NCBI GenBank assembly: GCA_035297365.1 | Contig: DATGZA010000058.1 | Coordinates: forward strand, 1 to 23,877 | Direction: 5' to 3' | Length of the DNA: 23,877 bases | From: Nitrososphaeraceae archaeon | GTDB taxonomy: Archaea; Thermoproteota; Nitrososphaeria; Nitrososphaerales; Nitrososphaeraceae | Shown here: one piece after another, positions 357 to 23,877 of the stretch | Position numbering within the stretch: position 1 is the stretch's first letter | Layout: each line of letters opens with the position of its first letter | The notes under the pieces: generated by a model | What the model was told of the DNA's origin: nothing | Seen by the model: only the letters and a program-made list of their open reading frames with translations | Databases searched by the model: none | Program-made: the position numbers and the translations under genes

Positions 357-1844
357 TTAATGCTGACTTAACTGAGATGTAATAGGTAGAGTAAAATTAA
401 AATTTGCACCTTTGTTCTTATTGTTCTCCGCCCATATTTTTCCACCATGTTTTTCTATAATATTTTTACAAATGTATAGGCCCAGGCCAGTTCCTGATTT
501 TGAACCTGTTACAAACTTCGTAAAGAGTTTATCCTTTATATTTGATGGAATGCCTGGACCACTATCTATTATTCTTACGAGAACAGTGTTGTTGTTGTCT
601 TGTCTTTCTAAAGAGACAATAATTTCTCCTTCTTTTACAATATTTATAGCGTTATTGATAATGTTTAAAAAAACTTGGTTTAAACGCAATTCATCTCCAA
701 CCATGGTAATTGAATCTTTATTGCATTTTAAAATTAAACTAATCTTTTTACCTAGGATTTGGTTTTTCAGATCTTTTAGTAAATCTTTTACCGACTCTAC
801 AAGATCAAATTCTTTCATATTAAGAGTTAAAAGTTGACTATCAATACGGGCAGCCTCTAAGATATTATCTGTAAGTAACTTAATTTTTTTAGCATTTTTT
901 ATGATGATTCTGAGTAAATCTTCTATATGACCAGGATCAAGGTTCTTGTTAGAAAGCATAACTTCTGCTAGACCTAAAATTGACTGGATCGGATTTCCAA
1001 TCTCATGTGCTGTTTCTTTAATAAATTGTATTTGTGTTTCATTTATGTTTTTTAATTGCTCATAAAGATTTTCCGCCTTTTCATAAAGTTCTGACTGTTT
1101 CCACAAGTTCTCAAACATAGAAATGTAATATAATACTGTTGATTTACTATTAGAGAAGGTTGAGAGTCCTAGCGATTCAGCAGGAGATTCTGTAGAATCG
1201 TTTACTAGTTCTGCAGTCATAGAGAATTTTCTGTCTACTATCAAAAATGTGACTGTTAAATACAGTGCTTCTGGTAAATATCTAATATGTATTCCTTTTG
1301 CCGTTAATCTATTGACTGCATCACCAATCTTTTTATCAAAAGGAGTTAGAATTCTTACTATTATGTTACCTTTAGTAGTATCTTGTAACCTTTGCAAGGT
1401 AAGAAAACCGTCTCCCAATACCATTCTCCTATAAAACCCATTTGCTGAAGAAAAAAGTAGTAATACTTCATTCTCCGCAGACTGAACAAGATTAATAGCA
1501 GTCCTTACAGCTTCTTCAGGATCCTTGATTATTTTGAGGCACGGTTTACTGAATTTAATATTTTTTATTTCTTGGATTTCATCAGAAGTGGGAATCGCTT
1601 TATCCCAGAAAGTATCAAAAACAAATTGTTTATTTTCAATAAAGTTTTTAATATTTTTGCCATAAAAGTTCTCCAATCTCTTGTATACGTTAAAACATTT
1701 CTGAGTATGAAAAAAGTATTTGGAACCATCTATTATTTCTTGGATCATTCCCTCATCTTTTTCAGTAAACAGGGGCTCTTTACACAAGGAACATTTTAAT
1801 TCTGTTCCATTGTTGGAATTGGAAAAACCTCTATTTTCATTCAT
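357..1844 (-). CDS. Cytoplasmic sensor histidine kinase with an N-terminal TRASH/YHS-like Cys motif
   Basis: H-box HEIGNPIQSILG, N-box NIINNA, G1 DSGPGI, G2 GTGLGL. The central LIVDRKFS...GLSTFSNSKSTV...FENLWKQ region is typical of Nitrososphaeraceae kinases. N-terminus has CSLC...DGSKYFFHTQKC. Confidence 0.95.
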   Translation of the reverse strand: MNENRGFSNSNNGTELKCSLCKEPLFTEKDEGMIQEIIDGSKYFFHTQKCFNVYKRLENFYGKNIKNFIENKQFVFDTFWDKAIPTSDEIQEIKNIKFSKPCLKIIKDPEEAVRTAINLVQSAENEVLLLFSSANGFYRRMVLGDGFLTLQRLQDTTKGNIIVRILTPFDKKIGDAVNRLTAKGIHIRYLPEALYLTVTFLIVDRKFSMTAELVNDSTESPAESLGLSTFSNSKSTVLYYISMFENLWKQSELYEKAENLYEQLKNINETQIQFIKETAHEIGNPIQSILGLAEVMLSNKNLDPGHIEDLLRIIIKNAKKIKLLTDNILEAARIDSQLLTLNMKEFDLVESVKDLLKDLKNQILGKKISLILKCNKDSITMVGDELRLNQVFLNIINNAINIVKEGEIIVSLERQDNNNTVLVRIIDSGPGIPSNIKDKLFTKFVTGSKSGTGLGLYICKNIIEKHGGKIWAENNKNKGANFNFTLPITSQLSQH

Positions 1845-4911: not shown

Positions 4912-5913
4912 ATACTATTTATTGTCACGAAACCTATAAAAAACTTAAATTTCTGGGAATGATACATGAAAAACAAATAAACAATATCTTCTCTTAGATC
5001 GACGTTACAATTAATCCATTAAGTCAATTTTGATATGATGTAAAAATCTTTTTTTAAAACATTTTTGCCGTCAACAAAAATTACTGGTATACTTCCTCAT
5101 AAAATTTTTTTATTTTTAAATTTTTTCCAACAAATAATAATATTAAAAGAATTAGTATGTGCCAAATTGGTTACCCTGAAAAAGATCTCTATTTATAAAT
5201 AAAAAATAAATTCAAAAAATAAATTCAAAAAATTTGTTGTCTTTCTATATAAAATATAGAATAATGTAGTCGATCTTTTAGTCTGGCAATAATTTTTCAA
5301 TAAAAAATATCTTAAGATAATAGTTTATTGTACTACACTATAATACTTAACATATTACTGATAAATTTTATGAAAAGGGGAGATTACATATTGTCTTTTT
5401 CTGTACATCCAGCACTGCTTCTGTACACCAAGAACTGATATTTACGCTCACCTATATTATCAGCTTTAGGCATAACATGCCAAACACTATTTTAGGTATA
5501 CACCAACATTCTTGTCTATATGTACACTATATCTCAGCCTAAGATGATTGAAATTTTCCCACTGTAATTAACATAATGAGTATCATCGTTGTCAAAATTA
5601 TGAATCGCGGATAAGTCATTACTGGGTTTTTTGGTTTCCCAACCCCTTAATGCTTAAAGTACATATTAAATCAAAGTTCTTTGCTCTCGAATTAAACTTT
5701 TAATATTACTCTCTATAGTATGACTTGTTGAGGTAAAAATTACTTCAATCTTAATGATCACACTTGTTTCTACCCTAAGTTTTTTTTCCGGTTTTTTTAA
5801 ATTGAAATATATCCAATTTATACAAATATACTGAATAGAATTGGTAACGCATCATTGTGTATGGTATTTGTAAATCACTAATTAGATAATCATTCTTTTA
5901 ATAGAAAAGTAAT

Positions 5914-6016
5914 TGGCCCTAGAAAACTCCGGGCCCGTCGGGAGTAATACCGATAGTGGTGCGAAAATAAGAATCTAATGTATGGTGGTAAAGAGATAAT
6001 ATTTATGATTTACTTT
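5914..6016 (-). repeat. tRNA-3'-end-derived site 1 (left arm, core, type A right arm)
   Basis: tggccctagaaaactccgggcccgtcgggagtaataccgatagtggtgcgaaaataagaatctaatgta...ataatatttatgatttacttt. Confidence 0.9.
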
Positions 6017-6137
6017 TGAATACATATTTTTAAAAGATTAGTGTAATTTCTTTAGATTTTGGCTATTTCCAGTGTTTTGTGTTGTCTAAAAAAACCTCAC
6101 CATATTGTTTTCCTAGATTTGATTCCTTTAAGTATTT

Positions 6138-6444: not shown

Positions 6445-6548
6445 ATAAACTTGTTAAAAGATTTTGTTTTTTGACAATGAATGTCTTGATAATTACGAAG
6501 CTAAGAACAATAGTTTCAATCCTTGTTATGATGGATTTTGTTTTTTAC
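6445..6548 (-). CRISPR. Orphan CRISPR remnant: repeat, 37-nt spacer, degenerate repeat
   Basis: 6513-6548 gtttcaatccttgttatgatggattttgttttttac; on the minus strand it ends in the ATTGAAAC handle and has an ATCC/GGAT stem. A partial second copy cttgttaaaagattttgttttttgac ends at 6475. The spacer is 6476-6512. Confidence 0.75.
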
Positions 6549-6578
6549 TAGAAAATTAGGAACTAAAGCGGGTTAGTT

Positions 6579-7139: not shown

Positions 7140-7207
7140 ATATTAAATATTCAAAAATACAAATATTAATAGTTTTTAGATACTATTAATTTAGCGAATA
7201 CTTAACT

Positions 7208-7294
7208 GACCCATCGGGAGTAATACCGATAGCGGTGCTAAAAATAAGAGTCTAATGTAATAGTAATAAGATAATAATATTTAGGATTTACTTT
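7208..7294 (-). repeat. Site 2 (partial core, type A right arm)
   Basis: gacccatcgggagtaataccgatagcggtgctaaaaataagagtctaatgtaa...ataatatttaggatttacttt. Confidence 0.9.
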
Positions 7295-7327
7295 GCATCT
7301 TAATAATGATAAGAAAGTTAAAGTTTA

Positions 7328-7787
7328 CTAATTTAACAATTCTTTAACAGTACTTATTAATTCCTTTCTATCAATGGGTTTTATCAATATTTGTTCCTTG
7401 GATAAACTTGGAATTATAGTTAATATTTCATTTTATATATCTAATACAGTTATAAAAAGAATTTTAATTGTGGAATCGATTGATTTTATTTGTTGTTGTA
7501 ATTGAAATCCATTCAAATACTTCATTTTGATATCGAGTGTTACTAGTAGATCATTAAAATTTGGAAGATCTTTAATAAAATTCAATGCTTTGCAGGGATT
7601 TGTAAAAGACGTTATTTCATAACCTTTATCCTTTAAAAATGATTCATATGTAAAAAGTATATCTGGGTCATCATCGACTAAAATTATTCTTATGTTATTG
7701 CTTCTTTGAGTAAAAAATAAATCTTTTTCCCTTTTAGTTTCTGTAAAATCGTCGGTAGAGGTCGTATCATTTTATCAAGATATAATT
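7328..7787 (-). pseudogene. 5'-truncated copy of the receiver-domain half of the cyclase-REC gene at 15680-16759
   Basis: Collinear and highly similar to 15680-16140. It has an in-frame TAA at 7433-7435 (Pro in the intact copy) and no cyclase domain. Confidence 0.9.
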
Positions 7788-8176
7788 ATTTGTTTATTAT
7801 GTTTATATTTGGGAAATTTTTAGGGACATAAAAAAATTTTCAATAACAAAAATAAATTTACTGATTAGTAGAATTACTCCAAAGATTCAGATTACATCAT
7901 ATTCATATTATACAATAATTGTATAAAGATATTGATTTAAATAGTATTTGTGTTATTTAATGTCTTTGTATGTTAATTACTTATAACGAGGTATTTTAAT
8001 AAATGAAATTTGTTATTATTTAATTCCATTTGCTTTCAAACTTGACCATAATAATTTTCCTGATTTAGAGAGATTTATATATATTAATTGATTGCTAAAT
8101 TTGATAATTTGTATCTAGATAAATAAAAAAAATTAAAAAACTATTTGATTGCTATCTGAAAATAATATTATTAGAT

Positions 8177-9532
8177 TCACATTAACTTATTTTGTTGTGC
8201 TATTCCTCTAGTAAATAGTATTTCATGATTACCTGGAGTAATATCTTCCCAAACAACATAAATATGATTATTAGTTACTGCAATTTGAGGACATTCTGAA
8301 ATACCTGTATTATTGCTTAGATTCGCTATTTTAGTAGTTGACGCATCATTTTTGATATTTACTATGAATATATCTTGGTTTTCTTTAGAAATTATATCTT
8401 GCCATACTATATAGGAGGGATCATTATTTGCTACTTCAACATTAGTAGGATGAGTAATTTTATTTACAGAAGAATTTTTGTTTTCAGGTTTTGTAACTTG
8501 AATTGTATATGGATCTGTAAAACTAGTGCCATTATCATCACTTTTAACAAAATATATATCTTTGATATTTTTTGAATGCAATCCTCCCCAAATTATCAAT
8601 ACTTCATCTTTAGATACTGATATTTGTGATTCTCCAAAATTATAATGAGCTAATATAATGCTATTTTCAAAAGCATTTCCTCTATCAGAACTTTTTATAA
8701 AAAATAGTCCACTATTTTCAATATCTTTAGAGAGGTCATTATTTTCACTATTCCAAACAATGTATACATAATCTTGATAAGAATTCACTTTTGGATAAGC
8801 ATCATTAGTATTGGTCGCTAATTCTATTGAATCATTAAATGTATTTCCACTATCAAAAGAACTCTTAAACATTATACTACTATTTTTATCATTATTTTGA
8901 TCGTAGTCAATATCTTGCCATACTAAGTATACATTTTCATTAAATGCAGAAAGTTCTACATTGTTAGAATTTTTAGAGTTATTGCTTAGGTTTATAGCTT
9001 TGCTAAATGTCACACCATTATCTTCACTTTTTGAAAATATAATTTCTGTATTATTAGAACCTGTGTTATCTGTCCAAACAATAAATATACCATTTTTAGT
9101 GACAGCAATCTGTGGGTGTTCTGAAAAGCCAGTATTATTACTCAAATTTATTGGTTTACTAAATGTATTTCCATTATTCTCACTTTTTTTAAAATGAATA
9201 TCATAGTTATTTTTATTTAATTTATCATTAACAGATTCTTGCCATACTAAGTATACGATATTGTCAATTGCAGATATCTGAGCATATACAGAATCAAGAT
9301 TATTATTTGTTATATTAGTAACATTTGAAAAGTTGAAGTCTGAGATAAGTGTACTATCAATACTATTTTTAGAGCTACTATTAAAGGATAACTTGTTTTC
9401 ATCAATTTCATCCGTTGCAGAAATCTCATAATAACAAAATAATGAACTTAGAATAATAAAGAATAGAATCAATTTCAGTTGATATTTATTAACTAAAAAA
9501 GGGATTAGGAGGTTTGACTTTTGAATATTCAT
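8177..9532 (-). CDS. Exported BNR/Asp-box repeat (sialidase-like beta-propeller) protein
   Basis: N-terminal hydrophobic segment and five Asp-box repeats (KSENNGNTF, KSEDNGVTF, SSFDSGNTF, KSSDRGNAF, KSDDNGTSF) with recurring VYLVWQ. The start is uncertain (ATG 9532 or TTG 9556). Confidence 0.9.
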   Translation of the reverse strand: MNIQKSNLLIPFLVNKYQLKLILFFIILSSLFCYYEISATDEIDENKLSFNSSSKNSIDSTLISDFNFSNVTNITNNNLDSVYAQISAIDNIVYLVWQESVNDKLNKNNYDIHFKKSENNGNTFSKPINLSNNTGFSEHPQIAVTKNGIFIVWTDNTGSNNTEIIFSKSEDNGVTFSKAINLSNNSKNSNNVELSAFNENVYLVWQDIDYDQNNDKNSSIMFKSSFDSGNTFNDSIELATNTNDAYPKVNSYQDYVYIVWNSENNDLSKDIENSGLFFIKSSDRGNAFENSIILAHYNFGESQISVSKDEVLIIWGGLHSKNIKDIYFVKSDDNGTSFTDPYTIQVTKPENKNSSVNKITHPTNVEVANNDPSYIVWQDIISKENQDIFIVNIKNDASTTKIANLSNNTGISECPQIAVTNNHIYVVWEDITPGNHEILFTRGIAQQNKLM

Positions 9533-9696
9533 ATTATTATTACTATAGAATTTCAATCTATTTATTTGTAAAATACATTACTCAAATATACTTGAAATAC
9601 AAAGAATTCTAAAAGATTTTTTGAAATGATATTGTAATATATGACTTATAACTATAAGACAGAGAGAACCATTTGCAATCATATTATGATTAATGT

Positions 9697-9736
9697 AGTT
9701 GAACCCGAGAAAACTACGGGCCCGTCGGGAGTTGAA
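9697..9736 (-). repeat. Site 3, best-preserved copy (left arm, longest tRNA-like core, unique right flank)
   Basis: agttgaacccgagaaaactacgggcccgtcgggagttgaa; the minus strand reads TTCAACT CCCGA CGGGCCC G tagttt TCTCGGG TTCAACT. Confidence 0.92.
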
Positions 9737-9839
9737 TAGCCACAGTTTCCGTGTTCAATGTTATTTTAAGATAAACTTATTATGATTTCTAAAAGGTTAG
9801 ATTTGGAGAAGAAAAATGAAAACCAAATAAATACAAAAA

Positions 9840-9960
9840 TTATATCATGTTGATCTCTTGTTCTTTGTATCATTTTGCTTCTCCCTCTGTTAATTTAAAA
9901 TACATGGTATCATCATTAAATCGCTCAAATAAATTTTTAGGGATGTTATCTTTATCCAAA
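9840..9960 (-). pseudogene. C-terminal fragment of a small Nitrososphaeraceae protein
   Basis: LDKDNIPKNLFERFNDDTMYFKLTEGEAK*YKEQEINMI* resembles the 'DKDKFY.PK.L..RFDG...YF..T.EEA..YK' family as I recall it. It has an internal stop. Confidence 0.45.
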
Positions 9961-10328
9961 CAGTATCTGGCAAAAGAAAAATCTCGATTAGATTAACTCA
10001 TAAAAAGAAACAATTCAATAATTAAAAAAAGATATAAAAAGAAAAATCAATGATGAAATCGGTCAAAGGCTTATTCTTATATGGATAAGATAAATAAAAA
10101 AGATATTGAAAATTCTAATTGAAAAAAGGAATTATTATGAGTCAAGAAAAATGTACATAATACAAATATTCGAAACTTGTAAACCTCATAGATAAGTAAA
10201 AATAGCCATAACTACATCCTTATCTTAAGTGACGTATTACTATATTCATATAGTAAAAACCATTTAGACTTTTCGAGTATTTTACATAGCCATCAATAAG
10301 TTGTAGGAAGAGAGGGGAATTTAGGAGG

Positions 10329-10871
10329 TTACTTACTGGCTATTTCCTGAATAAGGCTTCTGACTGTATTGATATCAAGGTCTAGCTGATCAGCAATCAT
10401 ATCATCCGAAATACTAGATTCATAAAGATTTCTCAACATTTCTTTCTTTTCACTGTCTATTATATTAGAAGGTGGATATAGCGATAGCTCTGCTTCAACT
10501 GATTTAACATATTGTTCGACCTTCTCAATAATATAGTCTGTATTGGTTCCCTTGTTTGCTGAAAGTACCAGTACATGATCTTTGACTGGAATGTTAAATA
10601 TCTTTACTTTATCATAATCAAAAAAAACACATTTTAAAGCACCTAATTCTGGTGAAAACATTCTTCTCAAGTCAACAACATAAGCAGTTTGAGCCAAATT
10701 CAATTCAGGATTTCTTCCCTTAAGATAATCCTCAAGGCCTTCTCTCATACCTCCTCCATACATATGTCCTGACTTTTCCACTACCCCAGCAAATCTAATA
10801 CCAGGATCTAGTTCTAAAATATTTTTTGAGAATTGCTCTGCTTTCATATTCAATATTAAGTGATTGTTCAT
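10329..10871 (-). CDS. Roadblock-like (DUF6659-like) protein with a C-terminal helix-turn-helix
   Basis: ILELDPGIRFAGVV...ELGALKCVFFDYDKVKIFNIP, then SDDMIADQLDLDINTVRSLI. Confidence 0.85.
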   Translation of the reverse strand: MNNHLILNMKAEQFSKNILELDPGIRFAGVVEKSGHMYGGGMREGLEDYLKGRNPELNLAQTAYVVDLRRMFSPELGALKCVFFDYDKVKIFNIPVKDHVLVLSANKGTNTDYIIEKVEQYVKSVEAELSLYPPSNIIDSEKKEMLRNLYESSISDDMIADQLDLDINTVRSLIQEIASK

Positions 10872-11128
10872 ATTTAGTCTTTCTGTACTGGCTGCATTAG
10901 TTGTTTTTGTATTAACTAATTATGAAGGTATCCGTTAAATCCAAATTAGAAAGTAACATAGTCAAGAACACGTTTGTAGGAATTACGATAGATTCATAAT
11001 TTCATTTTTACATGAATTTTACTCTCCTAACTGCTGAAATACTTAGCCCTATACATAGTAATGAGACATGAATTACCATTTACTGTAAAAAAAGTATTCA
11101 TTAATGTAATTCAAGTAAATTTGTGATA

Positions 11129-11228
11129 GTGAACCCAGAAAACTACGGGCCCGTCGGGAGTAATACCGATATCGGTGCGATAATAAGAGTCTAATATAGA
11201 GATACCACTGCCATGTAATGTAGCTTTT
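11129..11228 (-). repeat. Site 4 (left arm, core, type A right arm)
   Basis: gtgaacccagaaaactacgggcccgtcgggagtaataccgatatcggtgcgataataagagtctaata...tgtagctttt. Confidence 0.92.
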
Positions 11229-11270
11229 TTTGTTTAAGTTTATTATTTATCATTTACTATTAGTAGTACG

Positions 11271-13462: not shown

Positions 13463-13480
13463 GAGGCATTCCAAGTTCGG

Positions 13481-13553
13481 CGGGAGTAATACCGATAGCG
13501 GTGCAAAGATAAGAGTCTAATGTTATAGTGAAGAGAATATTTAAAAATTACTT
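13481..13553 (-). repeat. Site 5 (end of core, type A right arm)
   Basis: cgggagtaataccgatagcggtgcaaagataagagtctaatgttatagtgaagagaatattta. Confidence 0.9.
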
Positions 13554-13868: not shown

Positions 13869-14131
13869 ATGACTATCTTTGATGTATTTGCATTCATCAG
13901 TGGAATTATCCAATAGGAGTAGGTAGCCTTTTACTTTATTCTTTCTTAGCTAGACCTTATAAGCAAAATGGTGTAACAGTCAGAGGAATTTTTTTTATTG
14001 GTCCAATTCCAATAGTACTTAATAATGACAACCAAGACATTAATTTATTATCTATAATATTTTCGATATCTTTAATAGCAGTATTTTTTGTTTTATTCTT
14101 TTTTATCCTTTTAAATTATATTAATTTATAG
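13869..14131 (+). pseudogene. DUF131/TIGR00304-like small membrane protein, frameshifted
   Basis: MTIFDVFAFISGII, one base missing near 13910, then IGVGSLLLYSFL...VRGIFFIGPIPIVL...*. GxFFIGPIPIV is the family signature. Confidence 0.75.
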
Positions 14132-14624: not shown

Positions 14625-14831
14625 AAATGAATATAAAGTCTCAAATAGAATAAAAAAATAAACAAGAACCTTGTATATCAAGATTTGAATCCTACATGCA
14701 TTATAATGAGGTTTTTGCTAATTTGTATTTAGCTGTTATTATTAGAAACTTATTTTTAAACGGATACCAATGTGGAGTTACTATAAAAATTAATATTATA
14801 TATTTTGATATATAAAAAAATATTAAATTAA

Positions 14832-15095
14832 TTAGTCATTTTTGATGATAGTAGCTTGTAATAATTCGCCCATTTCATTATGCATTTTAAGATAGTTTAG
14901 TCCCTTTTCTGTAGTCTTGAATGTGTGATTCACATCAAGATATTCTAGTAGATTGTTTTCTGTCAAAACAGAAAGATATTCCTTTAATTGTGCATAACTT
15001 AGAAAAGCTTTGTACATAATTTTTGTCTTGGTTGCTCTTCCATTTGCAGCGTCCAGTATATTACCCACTATTTCCGTTCTACTTCTATATTTCAT
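14832..15095 (-). CDS. Archaeal winged-helix transcription regulator (HTH_45/DUF4364-like)
   Basis: MKYRSRTEIV..IL....ATKTKIMYKAFLSYAQLKEYL..L.ENNLL......FKTTEKG. Confidence 0.93.
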   Translation of the reverse strand: MKYRSRTEIVGNILDAANGRATKTKIMYKAFLSYAQLKEYLSVLTENNLLEYLDVNHTFKTTEKGLNYLKMHNEMGELLQATIIKND

Positions 15096-15476
15096 ATTAT
15101 TATAAGGTTGTTTAGTTATTTTAGTTTAATATCACAGTCAAAGGTAAGATAATTATAGTACAAACATTCTAAATATTATTTGCAAATAAAGAAAATATAT
15201 AAGAAAAGGTAATTCCTTAACACTCAATAAAAATCAATAGTAATAGTTGCAGATCATGTTTTGATACATGAAAACGAAATGAAAGATTATTTAGATTATG
15301 TGAAATTCTGAGAGATACAATAGTTATGACAACAACAACAAAACTACTTCCGAATTTACTAAAATGTTAAAGATGCTCTGAAACTCAGTATAATAGTAAA
15401 TTTGAACTAACAAGGCTGTTTGAATTTTAGTTCTTTTTAACAATAGGGTTAGCCTACATTTTCAGCAAGCTGCTCT

Positions 15477-15530
15477 GGAGTAGTGCCCTCAATGTAGAAT
15501 GGTTCTACTCTCTTATATTTAGCTTCTATT
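15477..15530 (-). repeat. Site 6 (degenerate type B right arm)
   Basis: ggagtagtgccctcaatgtagaatggttctactctcttatatttagcttctat aligns without gaps to 20643-20695. Confidence 0.75.
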
Positions 15531-15589
15531 ATTGAGAACTTAAATTGATTTTGTCGTATCAGAAAGTTTTAGGAACTCGATATTCACTT

Positions 15590-15646
15590 CGTCGGGAGTA
15601 ACATTGATAGCGGTGCAAAAATAAGATAATATTTAAGATTTACTTT
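15590..15646 (-). repeat. Site 7 (partial core, internally deleted type A arm)
   Basis: cgtcgggagtaacattgatagcggtgcaaaaataagataatatttaagatttacttt. Confidence 0.85.
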
Positions 15647-15679
15647 ACATCCTAATAATGATAAGAAAGTTGAATATTA

Positions 15680-16759
15680 CTAATTTAACAATTTTTTAAC
15701 AGTGCTTATTAATGCCTTTCTATCAACGGGTTTTATCAATATTTGTTCCTTGGATAATCCTGGAATTATAGTTAATATTTCATCTGGTATGTCTAAAACA
15801 CTTATAAAAAGAATTTTAATTGTGGGATCGATTGATTTTATTTGCTGTTGTAATTGAAATCCATTCAAATCTTTCATTTTGATATCGAGTGTTACTAGTA
15901 GATCATTAAAATTTGGAAGATCTTTAATAAAATTCAATGCCTTGCAGGGGTCTGTGAAAGAAATTATTTCATAACCATTTTCCTTTAAAAATGATTCATA
16001 AGTAAAAAGTATATCTGGGTCATCATCGACTAAAATTATTCTTTTGTTATTGCTTCTTTGAGTAAAAAATAAATCTTTTTCTCTTTTAGTTTCTGTAAAA
16101 TCGTCAGTAGAGGTAGTAATACTATTATCAAGATACAATTCATTAATTTTTTTTATACTGTATGTAGGGTATCCAATTGTTTCGGTTATCTTACATTCAC
16201 CATTGTTTATAAAATTATAATTGTTAGCAATATTAGAAAACGATTTTAAAATTCTATAAAAATTATCTCCAATAATTATTTGATTTACAATAGACAGGGA
16301 TGAATTTATCTTTGAACAGCGGTTTACTGTTGCCCCGAATAAATCTATCTGGCTATAATCACCAACTAAAGCTAAATCTAAAACACCAAAATCCATGCTA
16401 ATTCTATAGCTGAATGGGGGAAGATGCTGCTTGGATAATTCTTGATTAAGAGTAAAGCGGGAATCTAAGATTTTCAACCCGCATTCAATCACTTCTCTAA
16501 AAGCCTTTTCGTTTTTAGTATCAGATGCTTTTGGAAAATATAATAATAAACAATCACCAATATTCTTAATGACTTTCCCACCATAACTTTTAACTATTTC
16601 TGATATTGAATTCATAAATTTAGAATAATAAATTCTAATATGTTCTAATTTGTCCATTGTAATGGTATTTTGAGTAGAATCTACCAAATCAATAAAAACT
16701 ACACAACTCTTTATTGAATCACCAGAAAATCTAATTTCTTGTGAAGAAAAATTTTTCAT
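15680..16759 (-). CDS. Class III nucleotidyl (adenylate/guanylate) cyclase domain fused to a C-terminal receiver domain
   Basis: Cyclase motifs FIDLVDST, VIKNIGDCLL, IDLFGATVN; REC motifs IILVDDD, LDIKMKDLNG, IKPV. Confidence 0.93.
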   Translation of the reverse strand: MKNFSSQEIRFSGDSIKSCVVFIDLVDSTQNTITMDKLEHIRIYYSKFMNSISEIVKSYGGKVIKNIGDCLLLYFPKASDTKNEKAFREVIECGLKILDSRFTLNQELSKQHLPPFSYRISMDFGVLDLALVGDYSQIDLFGATVNRCSKINSSLSIVNQIIIGDNFYRILKSFSNIANNYNFINNGECKITETIGYPTYSIKKINELYLDNSITTSTDDFTETKREKDLFFTQRSNNKRIILVDDDPDILFTYESFLKENGYEIISFTDPCKALNFIKDLPNFNDLLVTLDIKMKDLNGFQLQQQIKSIDPTIKILFISVLDIPDEILTIIPGLSKEQILIKPVDRKALISTVKKLLN

Positions 16760-17831: not shown

Positions 17832-18382
17832 ATGACTAATTCATCTTTTCCACAATTATCTGGTAAGCTAGTCAATTTAAGAGAACCTTCAAGTGATGAT
17901 GTTACAAATATAGTAAATCTTATGAGTTATGATATAGCTAAATATCTTTATGAAGTTCCATATCCTTATAAGATAGATGATGCTTAAAATTTATTAAATC
18001 TAGTTGTGATGATTTTAGGCTACATAAATCAATAACTTTTGCTATAGACTATAAAAATAAATTTCAATCAGTTCGTCTACTAGTTGGAATTATAGCTATT
18101 AAAGATATTGATTATGTTAATAAAAAAGCAAATATAGGATACTGGATTGGCCAACAATATCATGGCAAAGGCACAGCAACAGAATGTATTGAACTCGTCG
18201 TTAACTACGCATTTGACGTATTGGAATTGAAAGAGATTTCAGCTTATGTTTTTCCAAAAAATAAACCTTCTATAAGAGTTTTGGAAAAAAATCGTTTTGT
18301 AAAGACAAAGAAAGTAAATGAATACCATCCTATCACAAATAGTTATAGAAATTCTTTAGTTTATATAATAAAAAAATACTAA
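17832..18382 (+). pseudogene. RimJ/RimL-type GNAT N-acetyltransferase, frameshifted
   Basis: MTNSSFPQLSGKLVNLRE...VPYPYKIDDA, one base missing near 17985, then KFIKSS...ANIGYWIGQQYHGKGTATE...AYVFPKNKPSIRVLEKNRF. Confidence 0.88.
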
Positions 18383-18424
18383 ATAGTAAATTGTAAAGAA
18401 CATAATTTTAGCACTTATATCAGC

Positions 18425-18464
18425 ACGGGCCAGTCGGGTTGAGTGGCATTTTTGCCTCTATTTT
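18425..18464 (-). repeat. Site 8 (core, type C right arm)
   Basis: acgggccagtcgggttgagtggcatttttgcctctatttt, nearly identical to 23575-23614. Confidence 0.85.
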
Positions 18465-18558
18465 GTTATTTATTTCTTAAGAATAATTAATAAAAAAAAT
18501 TATACAATGTTAAAAATTTTATTCCACAAATTTTAAAGACTTGTTTCCATACTTATAG

Positions 18559-19283
18559 ATGGGCGATTTTGTTATCTCAGCAGATAGTACTCTTATCAAG
18601 ACTAAAGGTTCTGTCTGGCATAAATCCTCTACGACTAAAGAAATAGTACCACATTCTGGTATCGATACTGATGCAAGATAGGGATTCAGTTATACAAAGG
18701 AGGGTTGGATATTTGGATACAAATTACATTTGATATCAACTACTGGTTCCATTATAGTACCATTGGCAGCAGATTTTACAACAGCCAACATACCTGACAA
18801 TCAAATATACAGTACAGTAACATGCAGTCTGCCTGTTACAAACACAAGAGAAACATATTATATGTCTGCAGATCCTGGATACGATGATCATAAACTGTAC
18901 GATCTCAGCAGAGATATGGGATTTCAATTGGTGTGTCCGGTACAGAGATATGAAAATATACCTGCTGACAGGATAAAATTAGTTGAATTTTATGAATCTA
19001 ATATTGGACAGGCTATCTATTCTCTAAGAAGTATATCAATTGAACCATTGATAGAACATATCAAATCTATCTTTAGAATAGACCCATTACCTGTAAGAGG
19101 ATATGATAAGGCTTGTGCAGCAGTACTATTGTCAGTCTTGCTGTACCACATACTTGTGTATTATAACTGTAAAACTAACAAAAAGAATCCCAGAGCAATC
19201 AAATACATGCTACGAACATAATGATTGATTACATGCTACTATTAGCATGATAATACTTGTTCACTGAATTATGACCCATCCTC
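18559..19283 (+). mobile_element. Defective IS with a DDE_Tnp_1-type (IS4/IS5-like) transposase pseudogene
   Basis: In frame from 18559: ISADSTLIK...GIDTDAR*GFSYTKEGWIFGYKLHL...SADPGYDD...RSISIEPLIEHIK. TAG at 18679-18681 replaces a Trp, the N-terminus is missing, and the ORF stops at 19221. A possible right end is ttatgacccatcctc. Confidence 0.85.
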
Positions 19284-20488: not shown

Positions 20489-20614
20489 CTAATGTAAGAA
20501 GAATAGAAAATAATGTTAAAGTAGAAAACAAAATCTCTTCCTCACATATTTTCTAATAGACAGGTTAATAGAATAATATTATCTTAATCTAGTCATCTAT
20601 CTGGTCATGTATGA

Positions 20615-20695
20615 TGGACCCTAGAAAACACCTGGCCCGTCGGGAGTAGAGCCTTCCATGTAGTAGAGTTCTACTACATAGTATTTAGCTTTTAT
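20615..20695 (-). repeat. Site 9 (left arm, core, type B right arm)
   Basis: tggaccctagaaaacacctggcccgtcgggagtagagccttccatgtagtagagttctactacatagtatttagcttttat. Confidence 0.9.
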
Positions 20696-20847
20696 CATCA
20701 AGAAGTTAGAAAGTAAAATAATTGTACAATAATCGACTAATCTTCATTTGGTTCGATAGAATCACCTAAAAATTTCAACACAATTCTTTTTCTTTTCTAT
20801 CAAATATGAAATACTGTTTTATACAACATATGAAATAAAGCAGTTTA

Positions 20848-21033: not shown

Positions 21034-21074
21034 ATAAATACAAACAAAATCTCTACCATAATGAATATAGAGAA

Positions 21075-21143
21075 TAATACCGATAGCGGTTCTAAAATAA
21101 GAGTATGTTGTAGATATACTATTACATTGTATTTAGCTTTTAT
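21075..21143 (-). repeat. Site 10 (type A right arm only, core lost)
   Basis: taataccgatagcggttctaaaataagagta...ctattacattgtatttagcttttat. Confidence 0.8.
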
Positions 21144-21182
21144 TAAGAACTATTATAAAAATCAAAATTTTCTGGGATATAA

Positions 21183-21261
21183 TGAATCCGAGAAAAGTAA
21201 TACTCCTCGGGAGTAGAATCTTCCATATAGTAGGGTTCTACGACATCATATTTAGCTTTTT
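21183..21261 (-). repeat. Site 11 (left arm, degenerate core, type B right arm)
   Basis: tgaatccgagaaaagtaatactcctcgggagtagaatcttccatatagtagggttctacgacatcatatttagcttttt. Confidence 0.85.
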
Positions 21262-23140: not shown

Positions 23141-23480
23141 TAGAACCTACCCGAAATTATCCACCTAGAAACAATAATGCTACTTGCTATTTGTACAAGA
23201 CCAAGATAGTTTTCTACCTTCTTTTCATACCTTGTAAACAATTTCCTGTCTCTGTTATGCCATGAATTTGTTATTTCTACAACCCATCTTCTTGCTGGAT
23301 GATATCTTCTCTTACCCGATACTTTTTCTCTTCTATGTCTTATTTGTGATATGTATCCTCTTTTGATAATTTCTTGTTCTACATCTTTGAATGATATACT
23401 TTATCAAGGCTAGGTTCTATTTTTTTGTATTTTTGTCTTTGGATTGTCTTCATGGTGGCTTGATAACTTTACTGTCTAAA
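23141..23480 (-). mobile_element. IS5-family remnant (transposase C-terminus and right end)
   Basis: EQEIIKRGYISQIRHRRE...PARRWVVEITNSWHNRDRKLFTRYEKKVENYLGLVQIA, with an upstream LDK motif out of frame. The probable end is tagaacctacccgaaa at 23141. Confidence 0.85.
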
Positions 23481-23558
23481 TCAAATGGTAACTTTAAAGA
23501 ATTTGAACAGATCTCTTAATGAATCATCTAATTAACTAAGAAATATATCTGTATGATG

Positions 23559-23614
23559 TGGTCCATAGAAAAGTACGGGCCCGTCGGGTTGCGAGGCATT
23601 TTTGCCTCTATTTT
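23559..23614 (-). repeat. Site 12 (left arm, core, type C right arm)
   Basis: tggtccatagaaaagtacgggcccgtcgggttgcgaggcatttttgcctctatttt. Confidence 0.9.
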
Positions 23615-23877
23615 AGAAAGTATATCTATGTTTTCAAATTTTTTAATCTTTTATTCTTTAAAAAATGAGATGATGTTTCTTATGTGATTTAAATATATCT
23701 AATATCTATGAAATTTTGCATAATTGCTTTCTCATTTGAATCGTAAATGTATTTTATTCAATTTTGTTATTTGATTTTAGTTATTATCATCATCGTTATT
23801 ATCTTTGTTATCATTAGAAGTGTTAGGATCAATACATACGTCTGTATCAAGTCCCGCTATTACTCTCGTATTTACAC

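Follow-up and report, generated by a model that had tools for sequence, protein, structure and literature searches.

A tRNA-Lys(UUU)-derived site between gene cassettes of Nitrososphaeraceae as a probable hybrid attachment site of a tRNA-anchored array

The integrated elements of Thaumarchaeota are given in the text of the survey by Krupovic et al. (2019, PMC6563490) as 2.6-98 kb in length, carrying an integrase by definition and having att sites that measure 17 bp in the median; the same text states that no integron-like cassette platforms had been detected in archaea as of 2019. Integrons, including archaeal ones, are the subject of a preprint by Ghaly et al. (bioRxiv 10.1101/2022.02.06.479319), the main text of which names neither Nitrososphaer- nor Thaumarchaeota. 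The tRNA-anchored tycheposon islands of Prochlorococcus are described in the preprint text of Hackl et al. (bioRxiv 10.1101/2020.12.28.424599). A literature search, which had supplementary att-site tables such as Table S2 of PMC6563490 outside its scope, returned no description of arrays of the kind reported here, and an integron-resembling arrangement of tRNA-derived sites has not previously been described for soil ammonia-oxidising archaea.

The locus lies in a stretch of 23,877 nucleotides from a Nitrososphaeraceae archaeon, hereafter the window. As in the thaumarchaeal tRNA-targeting elements covered by the survey text (PMC6563490), the direct repeats correspond to the 3' part of a tRNA gene, the target tRNA contains an intron and one site is re-used, giving rise to arrays. 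The tyrosine recombinase family is likewise common to both, but it is represented here by remnants only. In contrast to the elements of that survey, the units are 0.1-3 kb long and nearly all without an integrase, and the conserved block of ~40 bp with arms of ~100 nt exceeds the median att length of 17 bp. No element of the window has an integrase inside it, and remnants are present in 4 of 83 related loci. The array resembles the islands of the tycheposon preprint (bioRxiv 10.1101/2020.12.28.424599) in its tRNA anchor, in newcomers that push older elements inward and in a cargo of niche genes, and scattered partial tRNA copies and fragmented integrases are also reported there. As that preprint text presents them, however, tycheposons are bacterial, have integrase and replication modules as hallmarks and number one or two elements per genome, whereas the units described here are dense, single-gene and equipped with conserved arms; neither a replication module nor an intact integrase was detected in the window or in 113 of the 128 representative ORFs of the related loci. 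The likeness to integrons as described by Ghaly et al. (bioRxiv 10.1101/2022.02.06.479319) consists of co-oriented, small, diverse cassettes without integrase that each end in a recombination site, of insertion beside a fixed primary site and of a cassette order that varies between genomes. Unlike integron attC, the sites are conserved in sequence and derived from a tRNA, and their single-strand folds were no better than those of shuffled sequences (z -1.8 to +0.9). The primary site is moreover a tRNA gene and not attI, with no IntI beside it: genes for UvdE and NAD synthase flank the tRNA and no recombinase was found within 2 kb.

The site at 9697-9736 contains the heptamer AGTTGAA twice, at 9697-9703 and 9730-9736, 33 bp apart, and the minus-strand layout written for it in the original prediction was confirmed. 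The 40-mer is G+C-rich in a window of ~28% G+C, and it occurs a single time against 0 expected. The heptamer by itself was not enriched (8 copies against 6.1 expected, with 22 of 100 shuffles reaching 8), so the significance of the site rests on the conserved blocks that flank it. A core of 16 nt was found at six places in the window with at most 3 mismatches, where 0 are expected, and the left-arm motif at five places (5913, 9700, 20615, 21183 and 23559) against 0.23 expected, a number reached in 0 of 100 shuffles. A sixth left arm, at 11128, has a 1-nt deletion relative to the motif.

Related sites were collected by one scan of species-representative genomes with a 22-position core pattern (minus-strand reading), the exact pattern selecting the sites, and flanks of 2 kb were analysed. 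The scan returned 90 stretches, 83 of which are located in 23 species-level assemblies of Nitrososphaeraceae/Nitrososphaerales, 30 of these 83 coming from one bin that may mix strains. The remaining seven were dismissed as bacterial chance matches, G+C-rich and without flank similarity. Read in tRNA direction, a site is composed of a class-specific upstream arm, an invariant 22-bp core and a downstream arm. The upstream arms were assigned to class A (36 of the 83 sites), B (25), D (13) and C (3), with a tRNA body in four and other sequence in two. The core comprises the T-stem 3' strand, the acceptor 3' strand, the discriminator, three variable bases, which are the sole core positions that vary, and a T-run. 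The downstream arm most commonly takes the form CGGGTTCA (38/83), followed by AGGGCCCA (9/83) and CGGGACCA (8/83). The original prediction that the left half of the site represents the 5' half of a T-arm was upheld across the family: the arm agrees with the 5' half of the tRNA T-arm at a median of 11 of 14 positions over the 83 sites, against a background of 3.45, and at 13 of 14 positions in 12 arms.

In the related loci, 139 of 140 profile matches ran in the same direction as the exact match, and the six contigs with two or three exact matches were all co-oriented. Spacings of 103 to 1971 nt were measured inside the 2-kb flanks. The sites were clustered: a 349-kb contig has three matches, all in a stretch of 20 kb, and a contig of 601 kb has one. 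When the site region was compared with phage and plasmid collections by BLASTN, only chance AT-rich matches appeared (E 0.1-0.4). A hairpin preceded by the AT-rich motif AAAAGCTAAATAC is common to the arms of classes A and B (for example, 11163-11241 and 20650-20713 of the window), with a stem of 9-10 bp in class B; motif and hairpin may serve as promoter, terminator or arm-type binding site. The end of a response-regulator gene was considered as a constant component of the upstream arm and rejected as not general, only L078 being orthologous.

The identity of the tRNA was established from four of the 83 scan copies (L024, L075, L081 and L090), in which the core match is the 3' end of a complete, intron-containing tRNA gene scoring 56.7-56.9 bits on Rfam RF00005 (threshold 29). 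The anticodon loop CUUUUAA identifies the gene as tRNA-Lys(UUU), and a 14-nt insertion 3' of the anticodon loop is consistent with an archaeal intron. In all four loci the intact tRNA gene is followed by a T-rich trailer, by the same downstream arm and then by a cassette. On its other side, L024 and L075 carry the UvdE and NAD synthase genes, which makes tRNA-Lys the chromosomal anchor. The right half of the site at 9697-9736, predicted to be a tRNA 3' end, proved identical to that of tRNA-Lys(UUU) in all four genes (20 of 20 nt), the last 13 nt of the copy (9717-9729) forming the start of the invariant core. The cognate gene carries TCTCGGG immediately 5' of the T-loop TTCAACT, as the original prediction requires, and the downstream arm at 9697-9710 (minus strand) repeats 14 nt from the 5' half of the tRNA-Lys T-arm. 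The site belongs to class D, the sole class other than the tRNA itself with a complete T-loop.

There is next to no probability that these sequences represent a tRNA gene in circularly permuted or split form, the 3'-to-5' tRNA junction that had been put forward as an alternative, or a MITE/REP repeat. The element GGGCCCGTAG does equal the first 10 nt of tRNA-Lys, but seven of the ten matching nucleotides are automatic from the palindrome and only 3 nt extend beyond it. No D-arm follows, pieces of the T-arm and acceptor being present without D-arm or anticodon arm; ARAGORN found 0 tRNA genes in the window, and Rfam gave one CRISPR-repeat match and no tRNA. The GTAG beside the palindrome is, we presume, reminiscent of REP elements; against a repeat of this type, the sites are co-oriented and clustered, not dispersed, and neither terminal inverted repeats nor target duplications were seen.

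The behaviour of the flanks across loci bears on the point of exchange. The upstream class was independent of the three variable bases, of the arm and of the downstream flank (p > 0.15). The variable positions of the arm were linked to one another (p ~0.0002) and to the downstream flank (p ~0.003 and 0.0002), and the three variable core bases showed no significant link to either flank. The linkage of the arm to the downstream flank and its independence of the upstream class indicate that the arm travels with the next cassette and that the exchange point is inside the 22-bp core, a bracket of ~22 bp obtained from phylogenetically non-independent sites chosen by an exact pattern that covers the same stretch. 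For the site at 9697-9736, the next cassette in tRNA direction is the BNR cassette. Sixty-eight pairs of loci had the downstream cassette alone in common, and in 46 of them the start of homology lies between -9 and -2 relative to the core, at -3 most commonly; three pairs had the upstream cassette alone in common and in one pair both sides were continuous. One cassette without integrase was found at 94-97.5% identity in three species-level assemblies, where it follows a class B, a class D and a class A end, and in one bin one and the same cassette follows the tRNA directly (L024) and a class B end (L047), an arrangement that is predicted by insertion at the tRNA-proximal position. The re-assortment of the flanks, together with the linkage of the arm to the downstream flank, bears out the proposal that the two halves of the site face different cargo segments. 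Different arms occur despite near-identical downstream flanks in L071/L081 and L021/L060, and the strain pair L005/L040 has a short divergent patch beside the site; swapped arms and divergent patch together imply that gene conversion or homologous recombination between repeats may contribute.

The same data speak against the mechanism of the original prediction, in which strands are exchanged in the two T-loop copies, the cargo lies inside the split T-loop of a 33-bp minihelix-like unit, and its removal rebuilds a T-arm as a fresh landing pad. As that mechanism has it, the last 3 nt of the T-loop delimit the conserved block on the left and a T-loop-like heptamer delimits it on the right, and the few pairs with arms swapped against near-identical downstream flanks also agree with it. 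A T-arm rebuilt without a tRNA body was found in one of the 83 sites, L042, in which at ~1986-2036, and nowhere else, sequence like the downstream arm is fused directly to the T-loop end and core. The arm variants, however, segregate with the downstream and not with the upstream cassette, class C sites (three loci and two sites of the window) are without any T-loop remnant, and class A and B ends differ from the tRNA T-loop at several positions, which would leave a T-loop overlap mismatched. Apart from L042, no run of empty 33-bp tandem units was found. An exact 14/14 duplicate containing AGTTGAA occurs in 0 of the 83 related sites, hence the perfect duplicate is peculiar to the site at 9697-9736. 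We therefore regard exchange within the T-loop copies as very unlikely.

Given the tRNA identity, the anatomy and co-orientation of the arrays, the re-assortment of flanks at the core, the intact tRNA at the array heads and the integrase remnants in related arrays, the site at 9697-9736 is probably a hybrid att site (P arm - core - P' arm, attP-like) between neighbouring cassettes of a tRNA-Lys(UUU)-anchored array built by serial site-specific integration, the cassettes being mostly without integrase. A cassette would circularise and bring an attP of ~130-200 bp, in which a P arm specific to class A, B, C or D is followed by the core and a P' arm. Through its core the attP would be identical to the tRNA gene from the 3' strands of T-stem and acceptor to the discriminator and the T-rich trailer, and its P' arm would open with sequence that imitates the 5' strand of the T-stem and the T-loop. 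Strands would be exchanged within the core by a tyrosine integrase, presumably acting in trans, the partner being either the tRNA gene or a site already in place. The tRNA would thereby be regenerated with the newcomer beside it and the older cassettes shifted distally, so that every internal site would be a hybrid that takes its P arm from one cassette and its P' arm from the next. Exchange between adjacent sites may excise or reshuffle cassettes, and unused sites and cargo would decay. Neither an empty site nor a circular cassette was observed, which counts against this reading.

The sublocations at which integrases cross over in tRNA genes are said to be the anticodon loop, the T-loop and the asymmetric 3' end. 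Compared with these sublocations (Williams 2002), the identity block extends likewise from the T-loop to past the 3' end, as in elements that restore the 3' part of the tRNA. The differences are that exchange would be favoured in the T-stem 3' strand, acceptor or trailer, and that the downstream copy of the T-stem 5' strand would provide dyad symmetry. CCCGA and TCGGG, 16 bp apart, make up an inverted repeat of 5 bp with the dyad axis at the tRNA 3' terminus, and may represent the outer parts of core-binding repeats. Binding elements of 9-10 bp would leave an overlap of ~7 bp holding the three variable bases. Inverted core-binding repeats around the tRNA 3' terminus would thus explain why the T-stem looks 'permuted'.

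Profiles built from the loci of related genomes identified 13 related sites in the window (Table 1), all 13 on the minus strand, of which five are complete (5912, 9697, 11126, 20612 and 23558), one is near-complete (21180) and seven are decayed. The density amounts to 13 sites in 18 kb with a spacing of 0.1-2.9 kb. The cassette adjoining site 4 is 83% identical to L041 and the homology ends within the site. The tRNA-Lys gene at the head of this array is expected beyond the right end of the window.

Table 1. Positions of the att-like sites and adjoining cassettes in the window
Feature	Position	Strand	Description
tRNA-Lys(UUU) 3'-end copy, last 20 nt	9717..9736	-	T-loop, T-stem 3' strand, acceptor 3' strand, discriminator; identical to L024, L075, L081 and L090 genes
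tRNA trailer with T-run, then downstream arm	9697..9716	-	same trailer and arm after the intact tRNA (4 loci) and in 79 other sites
Class D upstream arm	9737..9773	-	end of the DUF6659 cassette; nhmmer class D profile, E = 9.8e-26
Cassette downstream of site 9697-9736 (tRNA direction)	7295..9696	-	BNR-repeat protein gene 8177-9556, response-regulator gene fragment 7436-7771 (Pfam)
Cassette upstream of site 9697-9736	9774..11125	-	DUF6659 protein gene 10329-10871 (Pfam)
Site 1	5912..6032	-	class A arm, complete core, downstream arm; most distal site in the window
Site 2	7206..7294	-	class A arm, decayed core, without downstream arm
Site 4	11126..11241	-	class A, complete
Site 5	13478..13525	-	class A fragment, partial core
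Site 6	14685..14770	-	class B fragment, core lost
Site 7	15474..15549	-	class B fragment, degenerate core
Site 8	15590..15626	-	class A fragment
Site 9	18422..18471	-	class C arm, partial core, without downstream arm
Site 10	20612..20713	-	class B, complete, 1 core mismatch
Site 11	21072..21147	-	class A fragment without core
Site 12	21180..21260	-	class B, near-complete: core degenerate, arm present
Site 13	23558..23616	-	class C arm, complete core and arm; closest to the expected tRNA

The sites were also considered as a regulatory or RNA module (terminator, hairpin or promoter) that was spread and homogenised by homologous recombination and duplication with no dedicated site-specific recombinase. 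The T-run after the tRNA-like end, the common motif and hairpin of the class A and B arms and the short divergent patches beside sites, which suggest gene conversion, are in agreement with such a module. RNAalifold furthermore pairs the acceptor GGGCCC with the arm, and the variation of the arm is mostly G-U/G-C compatible (19 GU, 7 GC and 1 AU at one pair, 17 GU, 7 GC and 3 GA at a second). The covariation values obtained by RNAalifold for 27 class B and 37 class A sequences were nevertheless -0.19 and 0, with double changes in one of eight and none of six pairs, and the single-strand folds did not surpass the shuffles. The exact identity to the 3' end of one tRNA and the intact tRNA at the array head are left unexplained, homology between genomes breaks precisely at the core, and integrase remnants are found within the arrays. 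A module of this kind is accordingly considered quite unlikely.

One or two genes lie between the sites of the window. The cargo includes two DUF6659 proteins, a BNR-repeat protein, HTH_45/Sso10a-family and cyclase-receiver proteins and an F420-type oxidoreductase, in addition to fragments of a receiver gene, a GNAT gene and two DDE transposases; the related loci likewise carry diverse accessory genes, and cassettes of the window are present in other genomes next to different neighbours. Crude ORF counts gave a modest orientation bias (102 sense, 77 antisense), which counts against the att reading. Two DDE transposase pieces at 18682-19218 (+) and 23143-23400 (-), a GNAT domain at 17981-18379 (+) and a DUF131 piece at 13883-14128 (+) are none of them full-length, and the partial frames suggest decay inside the array.

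Several other observations were made on the cargo. A direct duplication of 300 nt with 91% identity (7265-7564 and 15617-15916) spans the 3' end of a cyclase-receiver gene beside a class A arm, and the copy at ~7436-7771 is a receiver-domain fragment only. An orphan CRISPR-type repeat at 6513-6549 (-) lies inside a cassette (Rfam CRISPR-DR7, 43.6 bits, threshold 37), with no second copy in the window. The gene for a small DNA-binding protein of the HTH_45/Sso10a family is a recurrent cargo, present at 14832-15095 (-) of the window and in nine loci, always in tRNA direction and often directly before the upstream arm. A gene of ~190 aa, or its 3' fragment only, was found in antisense orientation in L046 (1011-1604), L072 (2084-2650), L075 (281-622) and L036 (129-515), with fragments in other loci; it shows sub-threshold similarity to RadA/Rad51 with no visible Walker A motif. 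It ends ~110-135 nt downstream of the core in 15 of 16 loci, lies upstream of the site in the sixteenth (L008), and is present in more than one copy in several assemblies and in none in the window.

Pfam detected no recombinase family in 16 ORFs and 26 further stop-to-stop frames of the window (from 40 frames of at least 70 aa), nor in 113 of the 128 representative ORFs of the related loci, the 15 left out being of ~100-110 aa. The region within 2 kb upstream of tRNA-Lys was likewise without a recombinase. A fragment in L026, invisible to Pfam even at E = 5, was first seen as a weak PHROGs match (E = 6e-4) and then confirmed by homologues. This ORF of 170 aa represents the N-terminal portion, 167 aa long, of a tyrosine recombinase family whose members have ~415 aa; it is 95% identical to P0001 (PF00589), and 1246 relatives of the family are in the database at E <=1e-5. 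At 380-1260 (-) of L026, tRNA-Arg(GCG) is followed 41 nt later by the integrase gene, which is broken off after 167 codons, exactly at the start of a class A arm and just past the first catalytic-arginine box. Further fragments of the family were revealed by tblastn in L047, L001 and L016, and none in the window. The absence of an integrase from the window and from the 2 kb upstream of tRNA-Lys, and the position of the best remnant beside tRNA-Arg and not tRNA-Lys, count against the att reading, and the ~415-aa family is a candidate for the enzyme without a tie to the tRNA-Lys site. Peptides encoded by the core were looked for by eye in four full-length homologues and were not present, which argues against an arrangement of att inside int (SSV-type split integrase) for this family.

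The integrase fragments in four related loci, the partial state of seven of the 13 window sites and the pseudogene pieces in the window would all be expected if the sites were fossil scars left by a succession of ordinary elements, each with an integrase, that had inserted at the tRNA and then lost their genes, the units never having been mobile as cassettes without integrase. The same picture of fragmented integrases and partial tRNAs in tRNA-anchored islands is given in the tycheposon preprint text (bioRxiv 10.1101/2020.12.28.424599). Neighbouring sites, however, are 0.1-2 kb apart in the loci, and in the window 0.1-2.9 kb, far below the 2.6-98 kb stated in the survey text for thaumarchaeal elements (PMC6563490). 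Arms of ~100 nt are conserved on units without integrase in 23 assemblies, and a cassette of this type, 94-97.5% identical, stands behind three neighbours in three species-level assemblies. A pure graveyard origin is possible for part of the array but fits poorly with conserved arms and recent re-assortment, and as an account of the whole we consider it unlikely.

Ammonia-oxidising archaea drive soil nitrification, and to our knowledge little is known of how they acquire accessory genes. We tentatively propose, as a tenable extension of the att reading, that the arrays may constitute an integron-like gene-capture platform of independent origin in soil ammonia-oxidising Nitrososphaeraceae. The 3' end of tRNA-Lys(UUU) would be the primary insertion site for single-gene cassettes with a tRNA-mimicking attP and conserved arms, a tyrosine integrase would act in trans from elsewhere in the genome or from a helper element, and the T-stem strands would be re-centred on the tRNA 3' terminus as inverted binding repeats. 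Many scan matches are on short contigs, which indicates that such regions, with their repeated sites, break metagenome assemblies. If the proposal is correct, the array, present in 23 species-level assemblies, would be a dedicated region for the swapping of stress, sensing and metabolic genes. The site would then offer a defined DNA handle for finding the recombinase and for tracking strain-level gene flux in soil metagenomes, and may provide tools for site-specific integration in a group that is hard to manipulate and lacks such tools.
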